From Actinomycetes bacterium (GTDB lineage Bacteria; Actinomycetota; Thermoleophilia; Gaiellales; F1-60-MAGs149): 64,000 nucleotides of DNA. Under the pieces are notes generated by a model. That model was not told where the DNA came from. It did not search any database and worked only from the letters and a program-made list of their open reading frames with translations. The first letter of the stretch is position 1. Each line of letters starts with the position of its first letter. The position numbers were made by a program, and so were the translations under genes. Shown piece by piece: positions 7,421-58,858 of this stretch. The stretch covers positions 1,555-65,554 of the forward strand of contig JANYCN010000049.1 of the NCBI GenBank assembly GCA_025360225.1, in the 5' to 3' direction.

Positions 7421-8629
7421 ATGGCGCAGACGGTGTTTGCGAACGGCGCGCTGCGAGGGGTTCACACGACCCGATACGGGGCGTACGAGGCCGCCGTCAT
7501 GGCGACCATCGTCTTCCTCGTGGCCTACGTCACCGGCACCGCGCTCGCTGCACCAGCCACGCTCCTCGTCGCCCTGTTCAACGTTCCGGTCGCGCTCGTA
7601 CCGGTCGGCGCATGGCTCGCGTGGCACACGCTGTCCGGGCGGGACCGGCGAGTCTGGCTCCTTCAGGCGCTCGCGGCGACCTGCTGGACGGTCGGCACGC
7701 TCGTCTGGTACGCCGCGTTCGCAACAGGCGGAGACGTCGCGCCACGCAACCCGGGGATCTGGAACGTGTTCTTCCTCGCCGGTTACGCGCTCGCCGTGGC
7801 CGGGATGCGGGTCGGGCTCGCCTCAGCCACGCGTCTCACCCACGCGGTCGTTGACACCATCGCGATCGCGGCTGCGCTCGTCGCGTTCGGTTCGATGCTC
7901 GTCGAGAAGGCGGATGCGATCGGCTGGACGACGCGCACCTTCGTGGTGCTCGCGCGCCCAGCGTTCGGCCTTCTGATGATCGTGTTGATCCTCTCCGCCC
8001 TCTTCGGCCGCTGGGAGACGGTGCGCCCATCAGTGCTGATCATGGCCCTCGGTCACGTGTTCCTGACGCTCGGTAGCCTCCGCGGCACGCTCGACTTCCT
8101 CGCGAACGACTTCGCCGACGACCACTGGGCGGACGTGTTGTGGGCAGCCGGCGCCGCCTGCTTCCTCGTCGCCACTGCGCGTGTCATCTGCCACCGCGAC
8201 GAGCAGGGGCCGGGACGGATCGCCGCCCGGCCGGGCTCCGCGCTATGGCTCCGTCTGGGCCTGACGCTGCTGTTGTTCGTCGGCGCGGCACAGGTTTACC
8301 GGGTCGCTGACAGGGATGGCGGGACGCAGGTGAGCGCCTACGCGATGACCGTGATGGGAGCCGCGCTCGCGCTACGCGCGGTGTTCGAGCTACGCGAGCA
8401 CCGCACGACGGTCGTCGCGCTCGAACGCGAGCTGTCCGATGCCCGCCAGACGGGAGCCTCCGTGAAGACGCTGCGCGAGCGGAACATGGACCTCCGGCTT
8501 CGGCAGGTGATGATCGACCAGGCCGTTTCCCGCGAGGCCGAGGACCAGCCGGAGGTCCTTGACGGGTTGATGCGCGCCGTCACCGACCTGTTAGAGCGGA
8601 CAAAGGATCCGCGCCAGGACGAGAGCTAG
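7421..8629 (+). CDS. Polytopic membrane protein with a C-terminal coiled-coil tail and no recognisable output domain
   Basis: About 9-10 hydrophobic segments are followed by RAVFELREHRTTVVALERELSDARQTGASVKTLRERNMDLRLRQ. The stop codon TAG 8627..8629 lies at the junction with the repeat element. Confidence 0.7.
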   Translation: MAQTVFANGALRGVHTTRYGAYEAAVMATIVFLVAYVTGTALAAPATLLVALFNVPVALVPVGAWLAWHTLSGRDRRVWLLQALAATCWTVGTLVWYAAFATGGDVAPRNPGIWNVFFLAGYALAVAGMRVGLASATRLTHAVVDTIAIAAALVAFGSMLVEKADAIGWTTRTFVVLARPAFGLLMIVLILSALFGRWETVRPSVLIMALGHVFLTLGSLRGTLDFLANDFADDHWADVLWAAGAACFLVATARVICHRDEQGPGRIAARPGSALWLRLGLTLLLFVGAAQVYRVADRDGGTQVSAYAMTVMGAALALRAVFELREHRTTVVALERELSDARQTGASVKTLRERNMDLRLRQVMIDQAVSREAEDQPEVLDGLMRAVTDLLERTKDPRQDES

Positions 8630-8741
8630 TGGTCTGATTGTCAAATGGCGTGGTCATTCGCGCGCCTGGATCGTCCTGCGCTGGCTGCGCTCCCGCTCGC
8701 TCCAGACACCAATAACCATGCCACTTGACGATCACACCACT
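8628..8741. mobile_element. Miniature TIR element, copy 1 (114 bp, internal-deletion form A)
   Basis: Left end AGTGGTCTGATTGTCAAATGGCGTGGTCAT matches the reverse complement of the right end, AGTGGTGTGATCGTCAAGTGGCATGGTTAT, at 25/30. It shares GCCTGGATCGTCCTGCGCT and CCGCTCGCTCCAGACACC with copy 3. Confidence 0.8.
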
Positions 8742-8864: not shown

Positions 8865-10967
8865 TCATCTAGCAAAGCGGCGAAGCCGGAGCGAGTTCGT
8901 CACGACGAGCAGGCTCGAGCTGGCCATCGCACCCGCGGCAACCATCGGGTGGAGGGCACCAGCCGCCGCGAGCGGGATCGCCGCGACGTTGTAGGCGAAC
9001 GCCCAGACGAGGTTGCCGCGGATCACCGCGAGGGTGCGCCGAGCGAGCCGGATCGCGTCGGTGACGGCGAGGAGGTCGCTCCGAGCGAGCGTGATGTCCG
9101 AGGCCTCGATCGCCGCGTCGGTGCCGGCACCGATCGACAGGCCGATCGTCGCCTCGGCGAGCGCGGGAGCATCGTTGACCCCGTCGCCGACCACGGCGAC
9201 GACCCGGCCGGCAGACTGGAGGGCGCGCACGACCTCCACCTTCCCCGCGGGCGTGACGCCGGCGAGGACCTCGTCGATCCCCACCGCGGCAGCAACCGAG
9301 CGCGCCACCGCCTCCGAGTCACCCGTGACGAGGACCGGCCGCAGCCCCAGCTCGCGCATCCGGCGAACCGCCGCCGCGCTCGTCGGACGCACCTCGTCGG
9401 CGACGGAGACGACGCCGCAGGCAACGCCGTCGACGACGACGACCACCGCCGTCTGGCCGGCCGTCGCCGCCGCTGAGACGGCCGCCTCGAGGGGCCCGCT
9501 CACCGGATGGCGTCCGACGGCAACGACACGTCCACCGACGAGCCCCGACACGCCAAGACCGACCTGCGCCACGAACGCGTCGACCGGTGCTAGCGCTCCG
9601 GCACGCTCGAGGGCGGCACGAGCGATCGCCCGTCCGATCGGGTGCTCCGAGCCATGCTCGACGGCGCCCGCAAGCGCGAGCACCTCCTCCTCCGTCGCTC
9701 CTTCGATGGCGGCGCAGGCAACGACGCGCATCGTTCCCGTCGTTATCGTTCCCGTCTTGTCCAGCACGATCGTGTCGATCCGCCGCGTCGACTCGAGGAC
9801 CGCCGGTCCGCGAATCAGCAGGCCGAGCTGCGCGCCGCGCCCGGTGCCGACGAGCAGCGCCGTCGGGGTGGCGAGCCCGAGCGCGCACGGGCAGGCGATG
9901 ATCAAGACGGCAACGGCGTTGGTGAGGGCTCGGCCCTGGGACGCGCCGGCTCCGAGCCAGTAGCCGTAGGTCGCCGTCGCGAGGACGATCACGCACGGGA
10001 CGAAGATCGCGGCGACACGATCAGCGAGCCGCTGGACTGACGCCTTGCCGGACTGGGCGTCGCGAACGAGGCGTTGGATCCCGGCGAGCGCGGTGTCGAC
10101 GCCGACCCGCGTCGCCCGCACCTCGAGGCGCCCGGCGACGTTCAGGGTGCCGCCGGCGACGGCGTCTCCGACGACGACGTCGCGAGGCATGCTCTCCCCG
10201 GTGAGCATCGACTCGTCGACGGCCGATGCGCCAGCAACGACGACCCCGTCAGTTGCGATCCGCTCGCCGGGCCGCAGGACGAGACGGTCGCCGACAGACA
10301 GATGCGCGGCGGAGACCGACCGTTCGACGCCGTCAACGAGCACCGATGCCGTCGACGGCGCGAGCGCCAGCAACGCGCCGATCGCGCCTCCGGCGCGCTG
10401 CTTCGCCCGCGCCTCCAACCAACGCCCGAGAAGGATCAAGGTCACCACCGTGCCGGCCACCTCGAAGTACAGCTCGCCGCCGTCGAGCACGCCGACGACT
10501 GACGCGCCCCACGCGGCGACGCTGCCGATCGAGATCAGCGTGTCCATCGAGGCGGACGCTTGGCGCAGGTTCCGCCAGGTCGCGCGGTGCAGCGGCCAGC
10601 CGCTCCACCAGACGACAGGTGAGACGAGGACGAGGGCGGCGAAGCGCAGCCACGGAGCGTCCAGGCCGGTCATCGCGGCGACCATCACCGGCGCGGTGAG
10701 CACGATGCCGACGACGACGCGAGCGGCGAGGCGATCGTCGTCGGCTCGCGGCGCCTCACCCTGGGCGACGGCGTGATAGCCAAGCTTCTCGACCGTCGCG
10801 CACACCAGCTCGAGCGACGCCGCGTCCGGTACCTGCACGCGGGCCGACGCGACGGCGTAGTTCACGGTCGCGGTGACGCCGTCGAGCCGGTTCAGGCCTC
10901 GCTCGATGCGGGATGCGCAACTGGCACAGGTCATGCCCTCGATCGGGACGTCGACGTTCACCGTCAA
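8865..10967 (-). CDS. copA: Copper-translocating P1B-type ATPase
   Basis: HMA domain GMTCASCASRIE, CPC motif IIACPCALGLATP, DKTGTIT, GDGVNDAPAL. The first 98 codons of track ORF 8865..11261 overlap copZ and a small ORF and look non-coding. I place the start at TTG 10967 (LTVNVDVPIEGMTC), which forms a TTGA overlap with the upstream stop. GTG 10961 is an alternative. Confidence 0.88.
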   Translation of the reverse strand: MTVNVDVPIEGMTCASCASRIERGLNRLDGVTATVNYAVASARVQVPDAASLELVCATVEKLGYHAVAQGEAPRADDDRLAARVVVGIVLTAPVMVAAMTGLDAPWLRFAALVLVSPVVWWSGWPLHRATWRNLRQASASMDTLISIGSVAAWGASVVGVLDGGELYFEVAGTVVTLILLGRWLEARAKQRAGGAIGALLALAPSTASVLVDGVERSVSAAHLSVGDRLVLRPGERIATDGVVVAGASAVDESMLTGESMPRDVVVGDAVAGGTLNVAGRLEVRATRVGVDTALAGIQRLVRDAQSGKASVQRLADRVAAIFVPCVIVLATATYGYWLGAGASQGRALTNAVAVLIIACPCALGLATPTALLVGTGRGAQLGLLIRGPAVLESTRRIDTIVLDKTGTITTGTMRVVACAAIEGATEEEVLALAGAVEHGSEHPIGRAIARAALERAGALAPVDAFVAQVGLGVSGLVGGRVVAVGRHPVSGPLEAAVSAAATAGQTAVVVVVDGVACGVVSVADEVRPTSAAAVRRMRELGLRPVLVTGDSEAVARSVAAAVGIDEVLAGVTPAGKVEVVRALQSAGRVVAVVGDGVNDAPALAEATIGLSIGAGTDAAIEASDITLARSDLLAVTDAIRLARRTLAVIRGNLVWAFAYNVAAIPLAAAGALHPMVAAGAMASSSLLVVTNSLRLRRFAR

Positions 10968-27744: not shown

Positions 27745-28599
27745 GTGCGCGTCGACACACTCCCGGCCCTGCGACGGCCCGTCCTGATCGCCGCGTTCCA
27801 CGGGTGGAACGACGGCGGCTCCGCTGCGACCCTCGCGGCCCAGTTCCTCGCGTCCTCGTTCGACGCCACGCCGTTCGCCACGATCGACCCTGATGAGTAC
27901 GTCGACTTCCAGCAGAGCCGACCGACCGTCGCGCTCACCGAGGACGGACACCGGACGATCTCCTGGCCCGAGACGGGCCTCTCCTACGCGCACGTCCCGG
28001 GGATCGAGCGCGACCTCGTGCTGTGCGTCGGCGTCGAGCCGAACCTGCGCTGGCGCGCGTTCGCGGGCGAGATCAGCGATCTGGCGTTGAAGCTCGGGAT
28101 CGACCTCGCGTTGACGCTCGGTGGCCTGCTCGCCGACACGCCGCACACCCACCCCGTTCCCGTGAACGGCTCGACAGCCGACGCCGCGCTCGCCGACGAG
28201 CTCGGCCTGCAGCGCTCCCGTTACGAAGGTCCGACAGGGATCGTCGGCGTCCTTCACGACGCGCTCGCGACCGCTGGTATTCCGTCAGCGAGCCTGTGGG
28301 CGGCGGTACCCCACTACATCTCGGCGGCGGCAAACCCGGCGGGCGCTCTCGCGCTCGTGCGCAAGCTCGACGCCATCCTTGGACTGAACGTCGCGACGGC
28401 CGAGCTCGAGACGGGCGCCGAACGCTTCCTTGCAGAGGTCGCCGAGGCGATCGACGATGACGACGAGACCTCGGCGTACGTGCGCGAGCTCGAGCAGCGC
28501 GACGGCGACGACGAGCCAGACATCCCGAGCGGCGACGACATCGCCGAGCAGCTCCAGCGGTTCCTGCGCGAGCAGGGCGACTCGGGCCAGCAGCAGTAG
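27745..28599 (+). CDS. PAC2 (proteasome assembly chaperone 2-like) family protein, paralog 1
   Basis: RRPVLIAAFHGWNDGGSAAT..., EGPTGIVGVL, acidic tail ending IPSGDDIAEQLQRFLREQ. Confidence 0.8.
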   Translation: MRVDTLPALRRPVLIAAFHGWNDGGSAATLAAQFLASSFDATPFATIDPDEYVDFQQSRPTVALTEDGHRTISWPETGLSYAHVPGIERDLVLCVGVEPNLRWRAFAGEISDLALKLGIDLALTLGGLLADTPHTHPVPVNGSTADAALADELGLQRSRYEGPTGIVGVLHDALATAGIPSASLWAAVPHYISAAANPAGALALVRKLDAILGLNVATAELETGAERFLAEVAEAIDDDDETSAYVRELEQRDGDDEPDIPSGDDIAEQLQRFLREQGDSGQQQ

Positions 28600-38306: not shown

Positions 38307-38792
38307 ATGCGCAAACGCTACCTCGGGATCGCCGTGCTCGCCGGCGGGCTCCTCACGACAGGCGCGGTGGTCGGGATCGCGACCGCCGGCAACGCCAGCG
38401 ATGGCACTCGCGGCAGGGCGCTCGTCCTGATCGAGCATCCGGACACGGACACGGTCGTGCACCTGAACGCGGACGGCAAGGACCACGTCGGCGACCTGCT
38501 GCCGTTCAACAACCCCGTCTACGACGCCGCGAACAAGGTGAAGGTCGGCGACGATCAGGGCAACTGCATCCACGTGCGCGTCGACCCGGCGAACAAGACG
38601 GGCGCCTACGAGTGCAACTGGACGACGAACCTGAGCGGCGGATCGATCACCGTCGAGGGCGCGTTCCTCGACGCCGGACCTTCGACGCTCGCCGTGATCG
38701 GCGGCACGGGCCGCTACAAGCTGTCCCGCGGCACGATGGATCTCGCCCCGACGGCTGACGGGAACTACTCCTTCACGTTCCACCTGCGCTAG
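38307..38792 (+). CDS. Secreted protein, possibly dirigent/allene-oxide-cyclase-barrel-like
   Basis: GGAGGG RBS then ATG 38307. Signal peptide MRKRYLGIAVLAGGLLTTGAVVGIATAGNA, then GGSITVEGAF...VIGGTGRYKLSRG. Stop TAG 38790..38792 lies at the junction with repeat copy 2. Confidence 0.7.
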   Translation: MRKRYLGIAVLAGGLLTTGAVVGIATAGNASDGTRGRALVLIEHPDTDTVVHLNADGKDHVGDLLPFNNPVYDAANKVKVGDDQGNCIHVRVDPANKTGAYECNWTTNLSGGSITVEGAFLDAGPSTLAVIGGTGRYKLSRGTMDLAPTADGNYSFTFHLR

Positions 38793-38928
38793 TGGTCTGA
38801 TTGTGAGATGGCGTGGTCATTCGGCTGCCTGGATCGTCCTGCGCTGGTCGGCTCTGCCACCCGTCGGGTGGCTCTGCCAGCCAGCTGCGAAGCCCAAACG
38901 TCGCGCGCCGCGTGACAATCACACCACT
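38791..38928. mobile_element. Miniature TIR element, copy 2 (138 bp, internal-deletion form B)
   Basis: The left 33 nt are near-identical to copies 1 and 3. It shares GCCACCCGTCGGGTGGCTCTGCCAGCCAG and ACGTCGCGCGCCGC with copy 3. The right TIR is truncated to GTGACAATCACACCACT. Flanked by C-TA ... TA-G. Confidence 0.8.
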
Positions 38929-39092
38929 AGCGGTTCGTCGTGAGGAGCAAGCCTGACAAGCGACAGCAAGGGAGCTTGCCAGGGCACGTGACCGAGCTGG
39001 AGCGGAGCTCCTCCCGACCTGTCGGGCGAGGTCTCAGACGCCGCTCCGCAGCGCTCGAACCGCCACGTATTTTCGAGACGGTGCGCTAGGGC

Positions 39093-39746
39093 GTGCGAGA
39101 CGTCATCGTCTCGACGCACTTCGACGATGCCGTGCTCAGCCTGTTCTCCGTGCTCGCGGAACGGGCTGAGCACGCCGTCGTCCTCACCGTCTGTGGCGGC
39201 GTGCCGCCAGCCGGGGCGCTGTCAACGTGGGATGCCGCGGCCGGTTTCGCCTCGGGCGCAGACGCCGCGCACGCACGACGACGGGAGAACGTCGCGAGCT
39301 GTGCGCTGACGGGGGCGATCGCGATCGACCTGCCGTTCCTTGACGGCCCGTACGGAGCCCTCGACGGCTCGGCCGTCCGCGCCGTCGTGCTCTCAACGGT
39401 CGCTGAGGGCGATCGGCTCTGGATTCCCGCGGGCATCGGTCGACACCCTGATCATCTCGCGGTGCGCAGCGCCCTCGCCACCGTCGGCGCGACGGTGTAC
39501 GCCGACGGTGGGTATGCAGGCCGCTGGCTCCATCCTCCGCGCGCTGCCGCCGGCACTGTTGGACGGGTCGTGCGGCGCCGTCTCGACGACGCAATGATGG
39601 CGGCGAAGATCGACGCGGTGCGGGCGCACGCCTCGCAGATACGCGGGCTGACGGATGGCTTCCCCGACCTGCTCGACCCGCATGGTCGGCTGCGTCGGGA
39701 GCGTTGGTGGCCGGCGAGGGGGCCTACAATGCCGCCGGGCCGGTAG
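39093..39746 (+). CDS. PIG-L/LmbE-family deacetylase
   Basis: VIVSTHFDDAVLS (the AHPDD-type motif) and GRHPDHLAV. GTG start. The last 10 nt overlap the tRNA. Confidence 0.7.
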   Translation: MRDVIVSTHFDDAVLSLFSVLAERAEHAVVLTVCGGVPPAGALSTWDAAAGFASGADAAHARRRENVASCALTGAIAIDLPFLDGPYGALDGSAVRAVVLSTVAEGDRLWIPAGIGRHPDHLAVRSALATVGATVYADGGYAGRWLHPPRAAAGTVGRVVRRRLDDAMMAAKIDAVRAHASQIRGLTDGFPDLLDPHGRLRRERWWPARGPTMPPGR

Positions 39747-39807
39747 CTCGAAGGTCGAGCAGGGGACTTTTAATCCCTCGGCCAGGGTTCGATTCCCTGT
39801 CGGCCCA
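39737..39807 (+). tRNA. tRNA-Lys (anticodon UUU), no encoded CCA
   Basis: Hand-folded cloverleaf: acceptor GGGCCGG/TCGGCCC, D arm GCTC-GAAGGTC-GAGC, anticodon arm GGGGA-CTTTTAA-TCCCT, T arm CAGGG-TTCGATT-CCCTG, discriminator A. The D loop is non-canonical (G at position 14, C at 21) and the variable loop is 4 nt. Confidence 0.7.
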
Positions 39808-42320: not shown

Positions 42321-42599
42321 AGTGGTCTGATTGTCAAATCGCGTGGTCATCGGACTGCCTGGATCGTCCTGCGCTTGCCGGCTCCGCCACCCGTCGGGTG
42401 GCTCTGCCAGCCAGTAACGGCGACCTTCGCGAGAACGTCGCGCGCCGCTTGCACTTAGCGTGTCAAGGCCTTCGCCTTGACACGCGTGCGAGCGGGCGTG
42501 CTATCCAGCACGCCCGCGATCAGCAACCGCTGCGCGACGCGCAACGCCCCCGCTCGCTCCAGACACCCAATGACCATGCCATTTGACAATCAGACCACT
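42321..42599. mobile_element. Miniature TIR element, copy 3 (279 bp, longest / reference form)
   Basis: TIRs AGTGGTCTGATTGTCAAATCGCGTGGTCAT and the reverse complement AGTGGTCTGATTGTCAAATGGCATGGTCAT match at 28/30. Internal hairpins: GCCACCCGTCGGGTGGC, GTGTCAAGGCCTTCGCCTTGACAC, GCGGGCGTGCTATCCAGCACGCCCGC. Confidence 0.85.
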
Positions 42600-43473
42600 A
42601 GCGAGGCCGCCGCGCGACGGCAACGCCGGCGAGGCACGCGGCGCCACCGAGCAGGGCGATGAGCGGCGGGCGCTCGCCCAGAAGCACCAGGGCGAGCACC
42701 ACGACCAGGGGCGGCACGAGGTAGGTCGTGGCGCCAAGCTTGCCGGCGGTCGTCCGGGCCAGGGCGTAGGCCCAGGTCGTGAACGCGAGCGCCGTCGGAA
42801 AGATCCCGAGGTACAGGATCCAGGCGATCTTGCCCGCAGCGGCGTGCTGTGCGCCGTGCACGAGCGACGGCGCGAAGGGCAGACACGCAACGGTGCCCGT
42901 CGCGCAGGCGAGGAACGTCACCTGCAGCGCGGACGTGCGGCGCAGGAGCGGCTTCTGCAGCACCACCGCCGTGCCGTACAAGCACGCGGCGAGCAGGCAG
43001 AGGGCTGCGCCGCCGGTCGAGGTTGCCCCGCCGCTGCGCAGCGAGAACCCGATCACGATCACGCCGGCGAACGCGATCGCAAGCCCGCTCAGGAGCGACG
43101 GTGGGAAGCCCTCCTTCAGGAGAACGCCAGCGAGCACCGCGATGACGATCGGCCCGACGTTCACGACCATCGCTGCCGTGCCCGCGTCGACCATCCGCTC
43201 CGCCTGGTTCAGGACGACGTTGTAGGCGCCGAACCAGAGGAGACCCACGCCGGCGATCGGGAGAAGGTCGCGGCGCGCAGGAAGCGGCTCACGGCGCACC
43301 GCGACGACCGCCCCGAGCGCGAGCGTGTCGAGCACGAGGCGTCCGAGCGAGAGCGCGCCCGGCGAGAAGGCGTGTCCGGCGCTGCGGATGCCGACGAACG
43401 CGGACGCCCAGAGCACGACGGTCGTCAGCGCTGCGACGAGCGGCAGCACGGAGGGCCTCGGCGTGACGCGCAC
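42598..43473 (-). CDS. EamA/DMT-family transporter
   Basis: Ten-TM-type sequence with duplicated EamA halves (LWASAFVGIRS..., GVLLKEGF...). GTG 43473 chosen inside track ORF 42598..43800. Stop TAG 42600..42598 lies in the repeat terminus. Confidence 0.8.
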   Translation of the reverse strand: MRVTPRPSVLPLVAALTTVVLWASAFVGIRSAGHAFSPGALSLGRLVLDTLALGAVVAVRREPLPARRDLLPIAGVGLLWFGAYNVVLNQAERMVDAGTAAMVVNVGPIVIAVLAGVLLKEGFPPSLLSGLAIAFAGVIVIGFSLRSGGATSTGGAALCLLAACLYGTAVVLQKPLLRRTSALQVTFLACATGTVACLPFAPSLVHGAQHAAAGKIAWILYLGIFPTALAFTTWAYALARTTAGKLGATTYLVPPLVVVLALVLLGERPPLIALLGGAACLAGVAVARRPR

Positions 43474-43587
43474 GGCGTGAGTGTATGACGCGCCAAGCGG
43501 TCGATCGGCGATGCGTTCGGCACCGGTGAGAAGGGAACCCGGGCAATGCGGCGCATTCCGCGTATGGTCAGAGTGGAAGCGGGAACG

Positions 43588-43610
43588 TCGCGCGCCACGA
43601 TGGCGCGCGA
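43588..43610 (+). promoter_or_regulatory. Perfect 10-bp-stem palindrome TCGCGCGCCA-CGA-TGGCGCGCGA just upstream of the RBS of the giant surface protein gene
   Basis: Read directly from the sequence. The RBS GAGGAG follows at 43616..43621 and the ATG at 43625. Confidence 0.4.
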
Positions 43611-43624
43611 GAATCGAGGAGCAC

Positions 43625-46600
43625 ATGCGCGCCTTCATCGCAGGAGTCCTGGGAACGATCGCCTTCGTGGCGGTACCATCGAGCGCGCTCGCGGCGAGCT
43701 GCACCGCCAACGCGGACGGCAACTGGACCGCGGCCACGACGTGGTCGAACTGTCCTACCGGGGTTGCCGGTGTGGCTGGTATCCCGGGCGTCGCCGACAC
43801 CGCCAGCGTCGCGGGTCACGTGATCGCGATCGACCAGAACGTCTCGGTCGCCGGCCTCACGCTTGACAACGCGACCCTCAACGACTCGGGTGGCAACACG
43901 ATCAACGGCCACATCGTCTCGATCCTCCTAGGCGGCGCGACGGTCACCGGGTCGGGCGTCCTGCAGTCGTCCGGCACCGGCCTCTCGATCGCTGGCGCCC
44001 TCACCTTGACAGAGACCAACCCGGGCAACTCGCTTGCGCTGACGGCTTCCGGGCCGACGAGCTGGACGGTGGGAGCGATCACCCTCACCGGCGGTGCGAC
44101 GTTCTCCCAGACCGCGAGCACGTTCACGACAACCGGCACGCTGGCTGGCACCGCCGACGCGGCGTCGCAGTTCTCGCTCGGCGGCACGACCGCGGTGTCG
44201 GCGGGGGCTGTCACCCTCACCGGTCCGGTGCAGGTCGGCGGGAGCCTCAACCTTGCTGGCGCGCTGACGCTCGACGGCGCGATCGTCGTGAGCGGCGTGA
44301 ACGCCGTCGCCGGCGCCGGATCGCTGTCGCTGACTGGCACGCTGAGCATTCCGAACGGCAACCGGCTCAACGTGCAGGCCGCGACGACGCTCGAGAACGT
44401 CGCGATCGCCGGCACCGGCGGCACGGTGATCGCGGCGACCACCGCCAGCGGCATCCTCACCGTGAGCGGCGCCACCACGTCGAGCGGAACCGGCACGATC
44501 ACGATCTCGGCCGATGCGAAGCTTCAGAAGCCGGTCTACGACGTCGGCCTGACCCAGCTCACGTTCACGATCACCTCGCTAGCGGGCATCACGGCGCCGG
44601 CGCCGGTGATGATCGACGGCGGCACGCTCGCGGCGAACTTCACCGGGCTCCTCTGGATCCACCTGGCGCAGGGCGCACAGGTCTCCGACCGCGCGACCAC
44701 GGGATCGCTCGCGGACGGTTCGATCGTCGATGGCCCCGGAATCTTCGGGCTCGCCGCGAGCGGGAACACCAGCGTTCGTGCGTCGACGGCGCCGAACAAC
44801 AGCAACATCGCCGCAGGTCACTTCACGCCGGGACTGCTCGACCTCGGCGCGGGTGCGCGCTTCACGATCAACGGCGCGACGTCGACCGTCAAGGTCGACC
44901 GGATCCTCGTCAACAACAACTCCGTCCTGACGCTGAACAGCGCGATCCCGTCCGGCCAGACGATCAACCCGCCCTTCCACGTGGCGGCGAAGATCGTCGG
45001 CATCCACGGCGGGCAGATCACCGGCGACCTCTTCACGGACATCGACGTGAGCGGCCAGGCGATCCTCGACTCGGCCTCGATCGGCGTCCCGATCACGACG
45101 CACGGCGCGACGAACCTGACGGGCAACACGACCCTCGACGCAAGCTGGACCGTGCCGACCAAGGCGACCCTGACGACCACACCAGGCACCACCGTCGACG
45201 GCATCGGTCGGATCCTCCTGGCGGGCGGCGCGATGATGCTCGGAGGCGATCTTGAGCTCGCCGGCCTCGTCGTCACGACCGACCCGAGCGCGCCGCACAC
45301 GGGCGGCTCTCTCGACCTCGCCGGCCACACGATCGCCATCGCGCTCGGCATCGGCACCCTCCGGGTCGACGCCGGCGGCACCGTTACTGGCTCGGGCACG
45401 ATCGACGCCTCCGTCGGCAACGTCGGCACGCTCGCGCCGACCGGCCCCTTCACCGTGACCGGCAAGCTGACGACGACCGGCACGCTCAGCGCCTCCTCGA
45501 ACGTGCACGTCATGCTCGACGCGCTGTTGCTCGGCGGGAACGTGACGGTGCACGGCCAGCTCACCGTCGATGGCGCGACGAGCGAGTCGGGTGGGACCGT
45601 TGCCGTCGTCGACGGCGCCACGGAAAGCGGCGACCTGACGGTGAACGGCGCGTCGCTCACCGCCGGGTCGATCACCGTCCACGGCGTGTTGATGGCAACG
45701 ACCGCGACGATCGTCTCGACCGGCGCCATGACGGCCGACCACACGGTGACCCTCGACACCAGCACGCTCTCCGCAGGTGCCCTCACAGCGACGGGTGATC
45801 TGGCGGCAACGACCAGTCCAATGACCGTCACCGGCCCGGTGACGGCAGGCGCCGGGGTGACGCTGACGAACTCGGCGCTCACCGCGACCAGCCTCGCCGT
45901 CACGGGCGACCTGAATGCGAACGGTAAGCCGGTGCTCGTCACCGGCCCAGTTGCGGTCGGCAAGGCCCCGGCGATCCATGCCCTGACCCTGACCGACGCG
46001 CCGCTCTCGGCCGCCAGTCTCGCCGTCACGGGCGACCTCAGCGCCGCCGGCGCGACCACCATCACGGTCGTCGGTGCAGCGGGGGTCGGCGGCAACCTGA
46101 CGATGTCTGGCGACACGGGCTCGCTCAGCTCCGCCGGTCTGACCGTCGGGCATGACGTCGTCGCACGCGCCACGTTCACGATCAACGGCGCCCTCTCCGT
46201 CGCCGGCACCCTCACCGGGACGGGACATCTAACCCTGACGCTGCCGGTGACGCCGGCGAGCCGGATCGTCGGTTCAGCGACGCTCTCCTCGGCGCTGCTC
46301 GACCTGCACGGCAACCTTCGCGTCGGCACCTACAGCCAGGACGCGACGAGCACGCTCGGGGTGTCGGTGCGCTCCGCCACCGCCACGGACCAGCTGACGT
46401 CGGACGGTTCGACAACCCTCGACGGTACGCTCAGCGTGACCTCGACCGGCTACGACCCAGCACCGGGAGCGACGTCCCGTGTCATCTCCTCGGGGCCGGT
46501 CACCGGAACGTTCGCGACGCTCACGGCGCCGCTCACGGATGGTCGCAACTGGCAGATCGTCGACTACGCCGCGACCCCGGTGACGCTCTCCCTCCACTAC

Positions 46601-47431
46601 AGCGCCCCGGGCATGCTGGCCGCACCAACGATCACCGGCACGCCGGTCGTCGGACAGTCGCTGACCTGCACGGACGGCACGTGGAGCGGACGCCCGCTGT
46701 CGTTCGCCTACGCGTTCGGCGAGCCGACCGCCCTCAGCACGCCGCCGACGACGATGAACACGGTCGTGATCACCCTCGCGATGGTCGGCAAGGACATCGG
46801 TTGCGCGGTCTCGGCAACCAACCCGGCAAGCACGGTGACGATCGCCTCGTCGAACGTGCTCGTCGTACGCCCCGCCCTGACGGCGCCGCCGTCGGTTGGC
46901 CCCGGTGCGAGCGTCCTCGGTGCCGCACTGACGTGCTCGCCCGGCGTGTGGGCCGGCTCGACGAGCTTCACCTACCAGTGGCTGCGTGACGGCGTCACGA
47001 TCACCGGGCAGACGACACAGGCGTACACGGCCGGCATCGCCGACCTCACGCACCTCCTGTCCTGCCAGGTCACGGCGAGCGGCGTCTCGAACACCAGCAA
47101 CACGGTCCTGACGCCTCCCGCCCGGGTCGTAACGGGCCTCGTCGTGGCCGGCACGAAGCTCGACAAGACGGGCAAGCTCGCCTTCAGCACCACCTGCATT
47201 GCCGCCGAAGGCTCGTGCACCGGCACGATCACCGTCACCGTCGGCGGCAAGGTCGTCGCCACCGTCGCGGTGAGCGGGGCCGGCAAGCGCGTCGCCAAGG
47301 TGAAGCTACCGGCAGCGTTGAAGAAGCGCCTCGCAGCCGGCAAGACGATCGCTGCCTCGCTCGCGTTCGTCTACCACGATGCCGGCGGGAACGTCCGCAG
47401 CTACGCGCTGCCTGGAAAGCTCCACAGGTAG
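43625..47431 (+). CDS. Giant secreted beta-helix-type surface protein (1268 aa) with C-terminal Ig-like repeats
   Basis: Signal peptide MRAFIAGVLGTIAFVAVPSSALA. About 1000 aa of low-complexity G/T/S/A/L/V repeats of the autotransporter-passenger / PATR style (GTLTLTG, LAVTGDL...). Two G..LTC..G.W.G...F.YQW-type Ig-like modules near the C-terminus. No LPXTG or C-terminal TM. Confidence 0.8.
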   Translation: MRAFIAGVLGTIAFVAVPSSALAASCTANADGNWTAATTWSNCPTGVAGVAGIPGVADTASVAGHVIAIDQNVSVAGLTLDNATLNDSGGNTINGHIVSILLGGATVTGSGVLQSSGTGLSIAGALTLTETNPGNSLALTASGPTSWTVGAITLTGGATFSQTASTFTTTGTLAGTADAASQFSLGGTTAVSAGAVTLTGPVQVGGSLNLAGALTLDGAIVVSGVNAVAGAGSLSLTGTLSIPNGNRLNVQAATTLENVAIAGTGGTVIAATTASGILTVSGATTSSGTGTITISADAKLQKPVYDVGLTQLTFTITSLAGITAPAPVMIDGGTLAANFTGLLWIHLAQGAQVSDRATTGSLADGSIVDGPGIFGLAASGNTSVRASTAPNNSNIAAGHFTPGLLDLGAGARFTINGATSTVKVDRILVNNNSVLTLNSAIPSGQTINPPFHVAAKIVGIHGGQITGDLFTDIDVSGQAILDSASIGVPITTHGATNLTGNTTLDASWTVPTKATLTTTPGTTVDGIGRILLAGGAMMLGGDLELAGLVVTTDPSAPHTGGSLDLAGHTIAIALGIGTLRVDAGGTVTGSGTIDASVGNVGTLAPTGPFTVTGKLTTTGTLSASSNVHVMLDALLLGGNVTVHGQLTVDGATSESGGTVAVVDGATESGDLTVNGASLTAGSITVHGVLMATTATIVSTGAMTADHTVTLDTSTLSAGALTATGDLAATTSPMTVTGPVTAGAGVTLTNSALTATSLAVTGDLNANGKPVLVTGPVAVGKAPAIHALTLTDAPLSAASLAVTGDLSAAGATTITVVGAAGVGGNLTMSGDTGSLSSAGLTVGHDVVARATFTINGALSVAGTLTGTGHLTLTLPVTPASRIVGSATLSSALLDLHGNLRVGTYSQDATSTLGVSVRSATATDQLTSDGSTTLDGTLSVTSTGYDPAPGATSRVISSGPVTGTFATLTAPLTDGRNWQIVDYAATPVTLSLHYSAPGMLAAPTITGTPVVGQSLTCTDGTWSGRPLSFAYAFGEPTALSTPPTTMNTVVITLAMVGKDIGCAVSATNPASTVTIASSNVLVVRPALTAPPSVGPGASVLGAALTCSPGVWAGSTSFTYQWLRDGVTITGQTTQAYTAGIADLTHLLSCQVTASGVSNTSNTVLTPPARVVTGLVVAGTKLDKTGKLAFSTTCIAAEGSCTGTITVTVGGKVVATVAVSGAGKRVAKVKLPAALKKRLAAGKTIAASLAFVYHDAGGNVRSYALPGKLHR

Positions 47432-52638: not shown

Positions 52639-52752
<114 letters not shown>

Positions 52753-57967: not shown

Positions 57968-58858
57968 TCAGCCCCCCTGAAACCCCGGCGTCGGCGGATC
58001 GTCGCCGGCCTGCTCGCGCAGGAAGCGCTGGATCTCGGAGGCGAGCTCGTCACCGCTCGGGATCCGCTCCTCCACCTCCTCGTGCTCCTCCTGCTCACCC
58101 ATCGACTCGAGGCGGTGCACCATCTCGCGCGTGTCCGAGTCGTTCGAGACGGCGGCGTCGTAGCCTGCGAGCTCGCGGCGCGACGTCTGCTCGAGGTCGG
58201 CGTCGGACAGGTCGATCTCGAGGTGCGTGCTGAGTCGTTCGAGGAGCGCAACGCTCGCCACCGCGTAGCCTGAACCAGCGTACGGCGGGACCTGCGCGAA
58301 GTACCCGACGGCTGGCGTGCCCGCCTCGACGACGGCCATCTCAAACGCCGACAGCGCTGCCGCCGGCACCCGTAGCACCCCGCTCGGCCCCCGAACCTCG
58401 CCGTGGCGGAGCAGGCCGTCACGAGAGGCGGTCGACATGATCGGCACCCGGCGGGTGTGCGCGACGGCGGCGGGCACCGCGCCGAGGCTGACCCACTGTG
58501 ACACGCCGAGGCGTCGCACGAGACCGACGATGTCGAGCGCGAGCGATTGCCAGCGCGCGTCGGGCTCCGCGCCGACCAGGAACAGCAGGTCGCGCCCGCC
58601 AATCCGCACGTGTCGTAGCACGAGCTCCGGCCAGGAAAGCCGTGTCAACGCACCGTCGACGACGTCGAGGACGGGGCGCCGGGAGCGATAGTCAAACACC
58701 GCGTCGCCGTCGAAGCGCACGATCACCGACCCGCGACGGGCAATTCGATCAGCGGCGCCAGACGCCGCACCGGCAGCGTCAACCCACCCGTCAAGCGCGG
58801 CGATCAGCACGGGGTCAGCCAGTTCCGGGATTTCCGTCTCAATCTGGTGTAGCGGCAC
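57968..58858 (-). CDS. PAC2 family protein, paralog 2
   Basis: DPVLIAALDGWVDAAGAAS..., RGPSGVL, acidic tail ending IPSGDELASEIQRFLREQ. Its stop is 3 nt from the preT start. Confidence 0.8.
   Translation of the reverse strand: MPLHQIETEIPELADPVLIAALDGWVDAAGAASGAADRIARRGSVIVRFDGDAVFDYRSRRPVLDVVDGALTRLSWPELVLRHVRIGGRDLLFLVGAEPDARWQSLALDIVGLVRRLGVSQWVSLGAVPAAVAHTRRVPIMSTASRDGLLRHGEVRGPSGVLRVPAAALSAFEMAVVEAGTPAVGYFAQVPPYAGSGYAVASVALLERLSTHLEIDLSDADLEQTSRRELAGYDAAVSNDSDTREMVHRLESMGEQEEHEEVEERIPSGDELASEIQRFLREQAGDDPPTPGFQGG

Follow-up and report, generated by a model that had tools for sequence, protein, structure and literature searches.

The intergenic region between an EamA gene and a molybdoenzyme gene, both read on the minus strand, contains a 279-bp sequence with inverted ends that returns in two shorter versions on the same contig, which raises the question of whether these repeats are mobile DNA, gene-end modules kept by the host, or structured RNAs. 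Our analysis covered a window of 64,000 nt from contig JANYCN010000049.1 (GCA_025360225.1), and all coordinates given below are positions in this window. The window has a G+C content of 70.5% and represents core chromosome, with the genes rpsF, ssb, dnaB, purA, purD, purB, purQ, purL, purF, purM, purN and purH. The molybdoenzyme protein is identical in the sister assembly GCA_043763365.1 and in several Logan assemblies; its next relative shares 68% identity, and the best named homologues (54-59% identity) come from Solirubrobacterales, Conexibacter, Baekduia and Pseudonocardiaceae MAGs, which makes a deep-branching actinobacterium the probable host. The window also holds a 1316-aa ORF (43481-47431, plus strand) that matched no Pfam family and overlaps several high-GC3 minus-strand ORFs, and either strand may code.

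The original prediction of three copies with terminal inverted repeats was reproduced: the sequences were found at 42321..42599 (279 bp, the long form), 38791..38928 (138 bp) and 8628..8741 (114 bp), all listed on the plus strand. Recomputed, the 30-nt ends of the 279-bp copy, the left repeat AGTGGTCTGATTGTCAAATCGCGTGGTCAT (42321..42350, plus strand) and the right repeat (42570..42599, minus strand; reverse complement AGTGGTCTGATTGTCAAATGGCATGGTCAT), match at 28/30 positions, as had been proposed, and a weaker end symmetry extends to about 50 nt. The terminal repeats, of about 30 bp, carry two GTGGTC motifs 21 nt apart. The 18-nt core of the repeat, GTGGTCTGATTGTCAAAT, had 5 matches with three or fewer mismatches in the window, where 100 shuffles gave 0.00 expected, which agrees with the predicted recurrence of the same ends in the short copies. 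Next to the left repeat lies the invariant subterminal block GCCTGGATCGTCCTGCGCT (42357..42375, 19 nt), which is exact in all three window copies (also at 8664-8682 and 38827-38845) with 0.03 matches expected. It was described earlier as shared by all copies, and together with the other shared blocks, GCCACCCGTCGGGTGGC, CTCTGCCAGCCAG, ACGTCGCGCGCCGC and CCGCTCGCTCCAGACACC, it was indeed present. The hairpin GCCACCCGTCGGGTGGC (42386..42402) is common to the 279-bp and 138-bp copies. Two further hairpins that had been noticed in the long form, GTGTCAAGGCCTTCGCCTTGACAC (42460-42483) and GGGCGTGCTATCCAGCACGCCC (42494-42515), appeared in the predicted fold and are limited to long forms. A sensitive blastn search with the three copies as queries found no further full or partial copy in the window. 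The open frames of the element matched no Pfam family and no frame was conserved across the copies, in line with the earlier view that the long form lacks coding capacity.

Pairwise alignment with cheap gap extension was used to relate the copies to each other. In the 138-bp copy, ~133 nt from the left side of the long copy are followed by the outermost 16 nt of the right repeat, the centre and the inner half of that repeat being absent; the 114-bp copy corresponds to the left ~55 nt and the right ~57 nt, with the central ~165 nt deleted. These gapped alignments support the suggestion that the short copies are different internal-deletion derivatives of the long one. The 279-bp copy had also been taken for the master form; this part was not supported, because a longer variant is indicated by an ORF on another contig (P0128), where translation predicts ~55 nt (18 codons) in place of 20 nt of the 279-bp copy, and the latter is thus not shown to be the longest or the master form. 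Two other repeats of the window were noted separately. One is a tandem array of about eight copies of the 9-nt unit CGCTCGGTC (52641-52750), intergenic between an aminotransferase and an amidohydrolase gene. The other is a 58-nt inverted repeat (28522-28579 and 58006-58063, 83% complementary), whose arms lie inside PAC2-family ORFs (27745-28599, plus strand; 57968-58858, minus strand), so that it probably reflects paralogy and not a mobile element.

Copies were also found outside the window. In the sister assembly, a degenerate fourth copy of 71 nt (contig L138, 22407-22477) lies about 8.1 kb past the right end of the window, directly 3ʹ of the TAG of a glutamine-synthetase-like gene, and a convergent gene ends ~25 nt further on. 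The four DNA-verified copies thus span 71-279 bp, all below ~600 bp, and they occur singly, not clustered. Three more copies were detected on other contigs by translating the element in all open frames and searching protein collections. P0127 fuses the central part of the element with an MFS-like fragment and a LytR-family protein in one ORF; P0128 is a TadG/vWA-like ORF running into ...WSDCQIAWSFARLDRPALAGSATRRVALPAS..., and P0198 is a Dtd-like ORF running into WSGCEIAWSFARLDHPALAGSATRRVALPAS.... Judged from the protein sequences, these three copies differ from each other in their internal make-up. The translation of the GCCTGGATCGTCCTGCGCT block, ARLD(R/H)PAL, is conserved in the copies of P0128 and P0198, and that of the GTGTCAAGGCCTTCGCCTTGACAC hairpin in the copy of P0127; the P0128 and P0198 copies seem, from their translations, to lie inside coding regions. 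About seven copies are therefore known, three in the window, one on L138 and three embedded in ORFs, all from a single lineage.

Wider searches added nothing to this number. No copy of the family was found in GTDB representatives, a metagenome contig collection, IMG/VR or plasmids. The scan with the 18-nt core returned single matches on 13 genome contigs and 19 metagenome contigs, none of which extended beyond the pattern, as expected by chance; IMG/VR scans with the degenerate repeat core and with the 19-nt block revealed no extended similarity, and blastn against the plasmid collection, with the element and the repeat as queries, gave nothing relevant. A full-text literature search with the repeat sequence returned unrelated primers only, which leaves this sequence without a match in the plasmid collection or the literature. 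The family is real and previously undescribed.

The most characteristic feature of the family, the association with C-TAG, had been missed in the original prediction and is an addition of the present study. All four DNA-verified copies abut the C-TAG stop of a gene that reads into the element. At the left end of the 114-bp copy, this is the TAG (8627..8629, plus strand, context AGC-TAG-TGG) of a gene for a 402-aa membrane protein (7421-8629, plus strand), located 5ʹ of the copy, with a heavy-metal P-type ATPase gene (8865-10961, minus strand) lying convergently on its 3ʹ side. The left end of the 138-bp copy overlaps the TAG (38790..38792, plus strand, CGC-TAG-TGG) of the Dirigent/allene-oxide-cyclase-like gene immediately 5ʹ of it (38307-38792, plus strand). 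At the right end of the 279-bp copy it is the EamA stop (42598..42600, minus strand, CGC-TAG-TGG) that is overlapped; the opposite end lies 16 nt from the molybdoenzyme ATG (42304), and both positions are as described before. The stop context of the L138 copy is CTC-TAG-TG. Among the 42 predicted genes of the window, 27 end in TGA, 12 in TAG and three in TAA; five end in C-TAG, and three of these five carry the element. The tetranucleotide CTAG itself is rare, as it was observed 20 times in the window versus 173 times expected from composition, an 8.6-fold under-representation.

Alignment of the copies had been proposed as a way to define the ends and any target-site duplication. A perfect TA pair was seen in only one of the four copies. 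Read as flank/dinucleotide and dinucleotide/flank, the junctions of the four copies are GC/TA...TT/GCG, GC/TA...TA/GCG, GC/CA...TA/GCG and TC/TA...TC/GTC, and the base outside the junction dinucleotide is C...G at 8/8 sequenced ends. The gene-proximal junction is TA in all four copies and the distal one in one, so that the TA/TA (or CTAG/CTAG) pair is perfect only at 38791-38928, the other pairs being TA/TT, CA/TA and TA/TC. At the gene-distal junctions (CT-T-G, CT-A-G, CT-G-G, CT-C-G) it is one and the same base that varies. On the gene-proximal side, TA is constrained as part of the stop codon; the change of the distal base could reflect chance (n=3), a pressure against CTAG, or the survival of flank mutants that are hard to excise, all of which are possible. 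Taken together, the flanks point to a target that is palindromic and close to CGC-TA-GCG, and with such a target duplication of TA is indistinguishable from duplication of CTAG. Both kinds have precedents. Some IS5-family elements generate a 4-bp CTAG duplication, and the targets of the IS427/IS5 group are YTAR/CTAG. IS630-family elements integrate at TA and duplicate it, with a preference for TA within CTAG (PMC2170065, the preference citing Tenzen and Ohtsubo 1991). Duplications of 6 or 8 bp were ruled out, as TGG directly follows the TAG.

The comparison of empty sites in relatives, also proposed earlier, was informative at two loci. For the EamA/molybdoenzyme locus, orthologous sites without the element were found in L037 (JGI 3300045919) and L038 (SRR35489358), which share 87% (EamA) and 93% (molybdoenzyme) identity with the window in the flanks. 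In these relatives, the EamA gene ends with CGC-TAG, followed by 37 nt and the molybdoenzyme ATG; 22 other nt, which the window lacks, take the place of the 278 nt of the element. At the second locus, between the Dirigent-like and the PIG-L-like genes, L043 (JGI 3300045963; flanks 83% and 77% identical) is without the element, and its Dirigent-like gene ends with CGG-TAG, at the codon equivalent to the TAG of the window, 4 nt ahead of the GTG of the gene that follows. With the relatives 7-23% diverged, neither of the two empty sites matches a clean excision. Since the empty sites keep the TAG at the same codon, the stop is native, and the element neither brings a stop nor truncates the protein; for the same reason, the possibility that the element carries CGCTAG ends of its own was ruled out.

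Compared with L043, the window has the 138-bp copy plus 164 extra unique nt at the second locus. These form an intergenic segment to the right of the copy (38929-39092) that is absent from L043; we considered it as a part of the family and rejected this, as it is unique in all sequences compared. The 297-nt stretch that is extra versus L043 is bracketed by the 8-mer TGCGCTAG (38785-38792 and 39082-39089), and its origin may lie in an ancestral spacer that the relative no longer has, or in a duplication of the gene end. Further along, the first 10 nt of a tRNA-Lys(UUU) gene (39737-39807) overlap the end of the PIG-L-like ORF of 217 aa (39093-39746).

[quoted passage not shown] We consider it likely that the family is a MITE confined to one lineage and moved in trans, the transposase probably being of IS630/Tc1-like or IS5-like type and targeting TA/CTAG. 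The absence of a transposase from the window, as predicted, agrees with Pfam scans of ORFs and called-gene tables, which revealed no transposase gene in ~73 kb of this genome; nor did the window, the adjoining 8.4 kb or terminal-repeat scans of public collections yield a transposase or an autonomous partner. Since no such partner was found, mobilisation in trans and the transposase family can only be inferred.

The strongest competitor of this reading is that the repeats are gene-end modules maintained by the host, that is, palindromes serving as terminators or in mRNA stability and spread by recombination or gene conversion, similar to REP/BIME sequences. Each of the four sequenced copies directly follows the 3ʹ end of a gene and the fold is extremely stable, both of which would suit such modules, as would the imperfect duplication at the ends and the failure to find a transposase. 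However, 30-nt inverted repeats and a rare palindromic target together mark a transposon and not REP units, and in P0128 (TadG/vWA-like) and P0198 (Dtd-like) the copy seems to disrupt a coding region. The internal content is freely deleted, from more than 279 nt down to 71, which argues against a conserved functional structure; no U-tract terminator is present, and in relatives the same loci do without the element. We regard gene-end modules as quite improbable in comparison with a MITE.

An origin as small structured RNA genes or cis-regulatory RNAs, with the inverted ends forming the closing stem, was weighed against the predicted folds. The RNA of the 279-bp copy folds with -207 kcal/mol versus -126 ± 5 for shuffles (z = -15.8), and the short copies also fold better than their shuffles (z = -4.1 and -3.8). 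These scores speak for an RNA family, together with the location of the copies, when these are counted as all intergenic. Against this, no Rfam family was found for the element, the best sub-threshold score being 20.9 bits versus a gathering threshold of 112, and a tRNA was the only Rfam hit of the window at the gathering threshold. Promoter-like or terminator-like sites of an RNA gene are lacking, the internal hairpins are dispensable, as the short copies indicate, and the stems are too few and too nearly identical for covariation. The original prediction had named a lack of further copies together with conservation at orthologous loci as the sign of regulatory RNAs; we found the opposite, with additional copies outside the window and absence at orthologous loci. 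The RNA reading is accordingly given very little weight.

The repeats also leave traces in the assemblies. Nine contigs end inside copies, seven of them from Logan and two from the sister MAG GCA_043763365.1. The Logan contigs end at 8653 in the 114-bp copy (L039), at 38816 in the 138-bp copy (L040, L041 and L042), at 42382 in the 279-bp copy (L015 and L016) and inside the L138-type fourth copy (L139). The two contigs of the sister MAG, JAYULQ010000154.1 and JAYULQ010000123.1, end at 42523 and begin at ~42428, respectively, and overlap by ~96 nt within the 279-bp copy. Such ends are expected of a multi-copy repeat. A chimeric repeat made by the metagenome assembler or by binning, to which the MAG source and the contig breaks at the element might point, is hardly credible, as identical junctions occur in the second NCBI MAG (GCA_043763365.1) and in Logan contigs from three different sequencing runs, and breaks sited at repeats are what a true multi-copy element gives. 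The practical consequence is that these repeats fragment the metagenome assemblies of the lineage and make gene callers fuse or extend ORFs, as in P0127, P0128 and P0198.

Under the MITE reading, a transposase encoded elsewhere in the genome would bind the terminal repeats and move the element by cut-and-paste. The insertion point would be the TA of a palindromic (C/A)GC-TA-GCG site, where TA or CTAG would be duplicated, and insertions inside genes would mostly be lost. With CTAG 8.6-fold depleted in a genome of 70% GC and the insertions in genes mostly lost, the surviving sites would be the C-TAG stops. The first base of the element is G, hence TA+G rebuilds the stop and the upstream gene stays intact. 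The family would in this way be a tidy example of how a rare-tetranucleotide target and purifying selection can confine a transposon to the stop codons of a high-GC genome. A bolder version can be imagined, in which a MITE homes to stop codons: the CGC-TA-GCG target and the first base G would rebuild C-TAG stops and allow a cost-free high occupancy of gene ends, and the copies kept would be immobilised by the loss of the distal TA and co-opted as 3ʹ-end hairpins or insulators that donate an outward -35 box, for example to a leaderless-type molybdoenzyme promoter. We find this full scenario unlikely.

As for the effects after insertion, every copy has a stop codon on one side and, on the other, the next gene in the same direction (two copies) or a convergent gene (two copies). 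Given this placement after stop codons, the copies are probably transcribed as part of the upstream mRNA. The co-transcribed element could then fold into a very stable hairpin, which may terminate, process or stabilise the mRNA. The original prediction had already mentioned a promoter or terminator. Consensus scans of the element found neither a U-tract terminator nor a canonical sigma-70 promoter (the promoter scan demanding a 16-18 nt spacer), and both were dropped as parts of the element. Each terminal repeat does carry an outward TTGACA that might offer a -35 box to the neighbouring gene. The one in the left repeat (42332..42337, minus strand) lies 15 nt upstream of TATCCT (42316-42311), and its mirror copy is found in the right repeat (42583-42588, plus strand). 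Between TATCCT and the molybdoenzyme ATG there are 6 nt, and the empty-site relative keeps this TATCCT-N6-ATG arrangement, with GGGAGGA upstream of it; the window has no GGGAGGA there, and a perfect TTGACA comes from the element. The layout suggests a leaderless molybdoenzyme transcript from a putative promoter that gained its -35 box from the element.

Both MITEs that target TA/CTAG and the effects of hairpins on neighbouring genes are well known, and the present family opens no new mechanism. It is a new family of a well-known and ordinary kind of selfish DNA, and what is neatest about it is how strictly it is tied to C-TAG stops. The closest comparison as to movement is with the MITEs of IS630/Tc1-mariner elements, which are likewise small and non-coding, with terminal inverted repeats of ~24-30 bp; the junctions here are compatible with a TA duplication, and a CTAG-containing target is found at every sequenced end. 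The present family differs in that no cognate transposase or full-length element was found and that TA is intact on both sides in one of the four copies. MITEs of the IS5 family (IS427/IS5 group) share the CTAG target, and a duplication of 2-4 bp would fit the junctions equally well, the site being palindromic; here too, no partner element was found, and the repeats seem unlike IS5-type ends. The REP/BIME sequences with RAYT are of another kind, with units of 20-40 nt that are often clustered and have no long terminal repeats, whereas the present units are single, 71-279 nt long and bounded by 30-nt terminal repeats.

For the possible action of the element after insertion, the best analogue may be the Correia elements (CREE) of Neisseria. 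The end of a Correia element presumably also begins with TATAGTGGATT..., which we take as a lead only. Correia elements are ~100-200 bp long, with ~26-bp terminal repeats, deletion subtypes and no linked transposase known; they are co-transcribed with their neighbours, form hairpins that RNase III cleaves, and have promoter elements facing outward (PMC10969869). Their host phylum is unrelated to the actinobacterium-like MAG of 70% GC studied here, in which the element is not classed as a CREE, and the CREE features of an IHF site, promoter activity and RNase III cleavage are at most putative for it. Repeats of the ERIC/IRU, RUP and SPRITE type are intergenic palindromes that are included in the mRNA of the gene upstream and can change its stability or termination; the hairpins of Correia and ERIC elements undergo RNase III cleavage or affect the decay of the mRNA (PMC10969869). 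The present family differs from ERIC/IRU, RUP and SPRITE repeats in sequence and host, is stricter in its location, exactly on C-TAG, and is without a U-tract. By analogy with these systems, the element would move like a MITE of the IS630/Tc1 or IS5 type and, once inserted, act like a Correia or ERIC element, a likeness of behaviour and not an assignment to any of these families.
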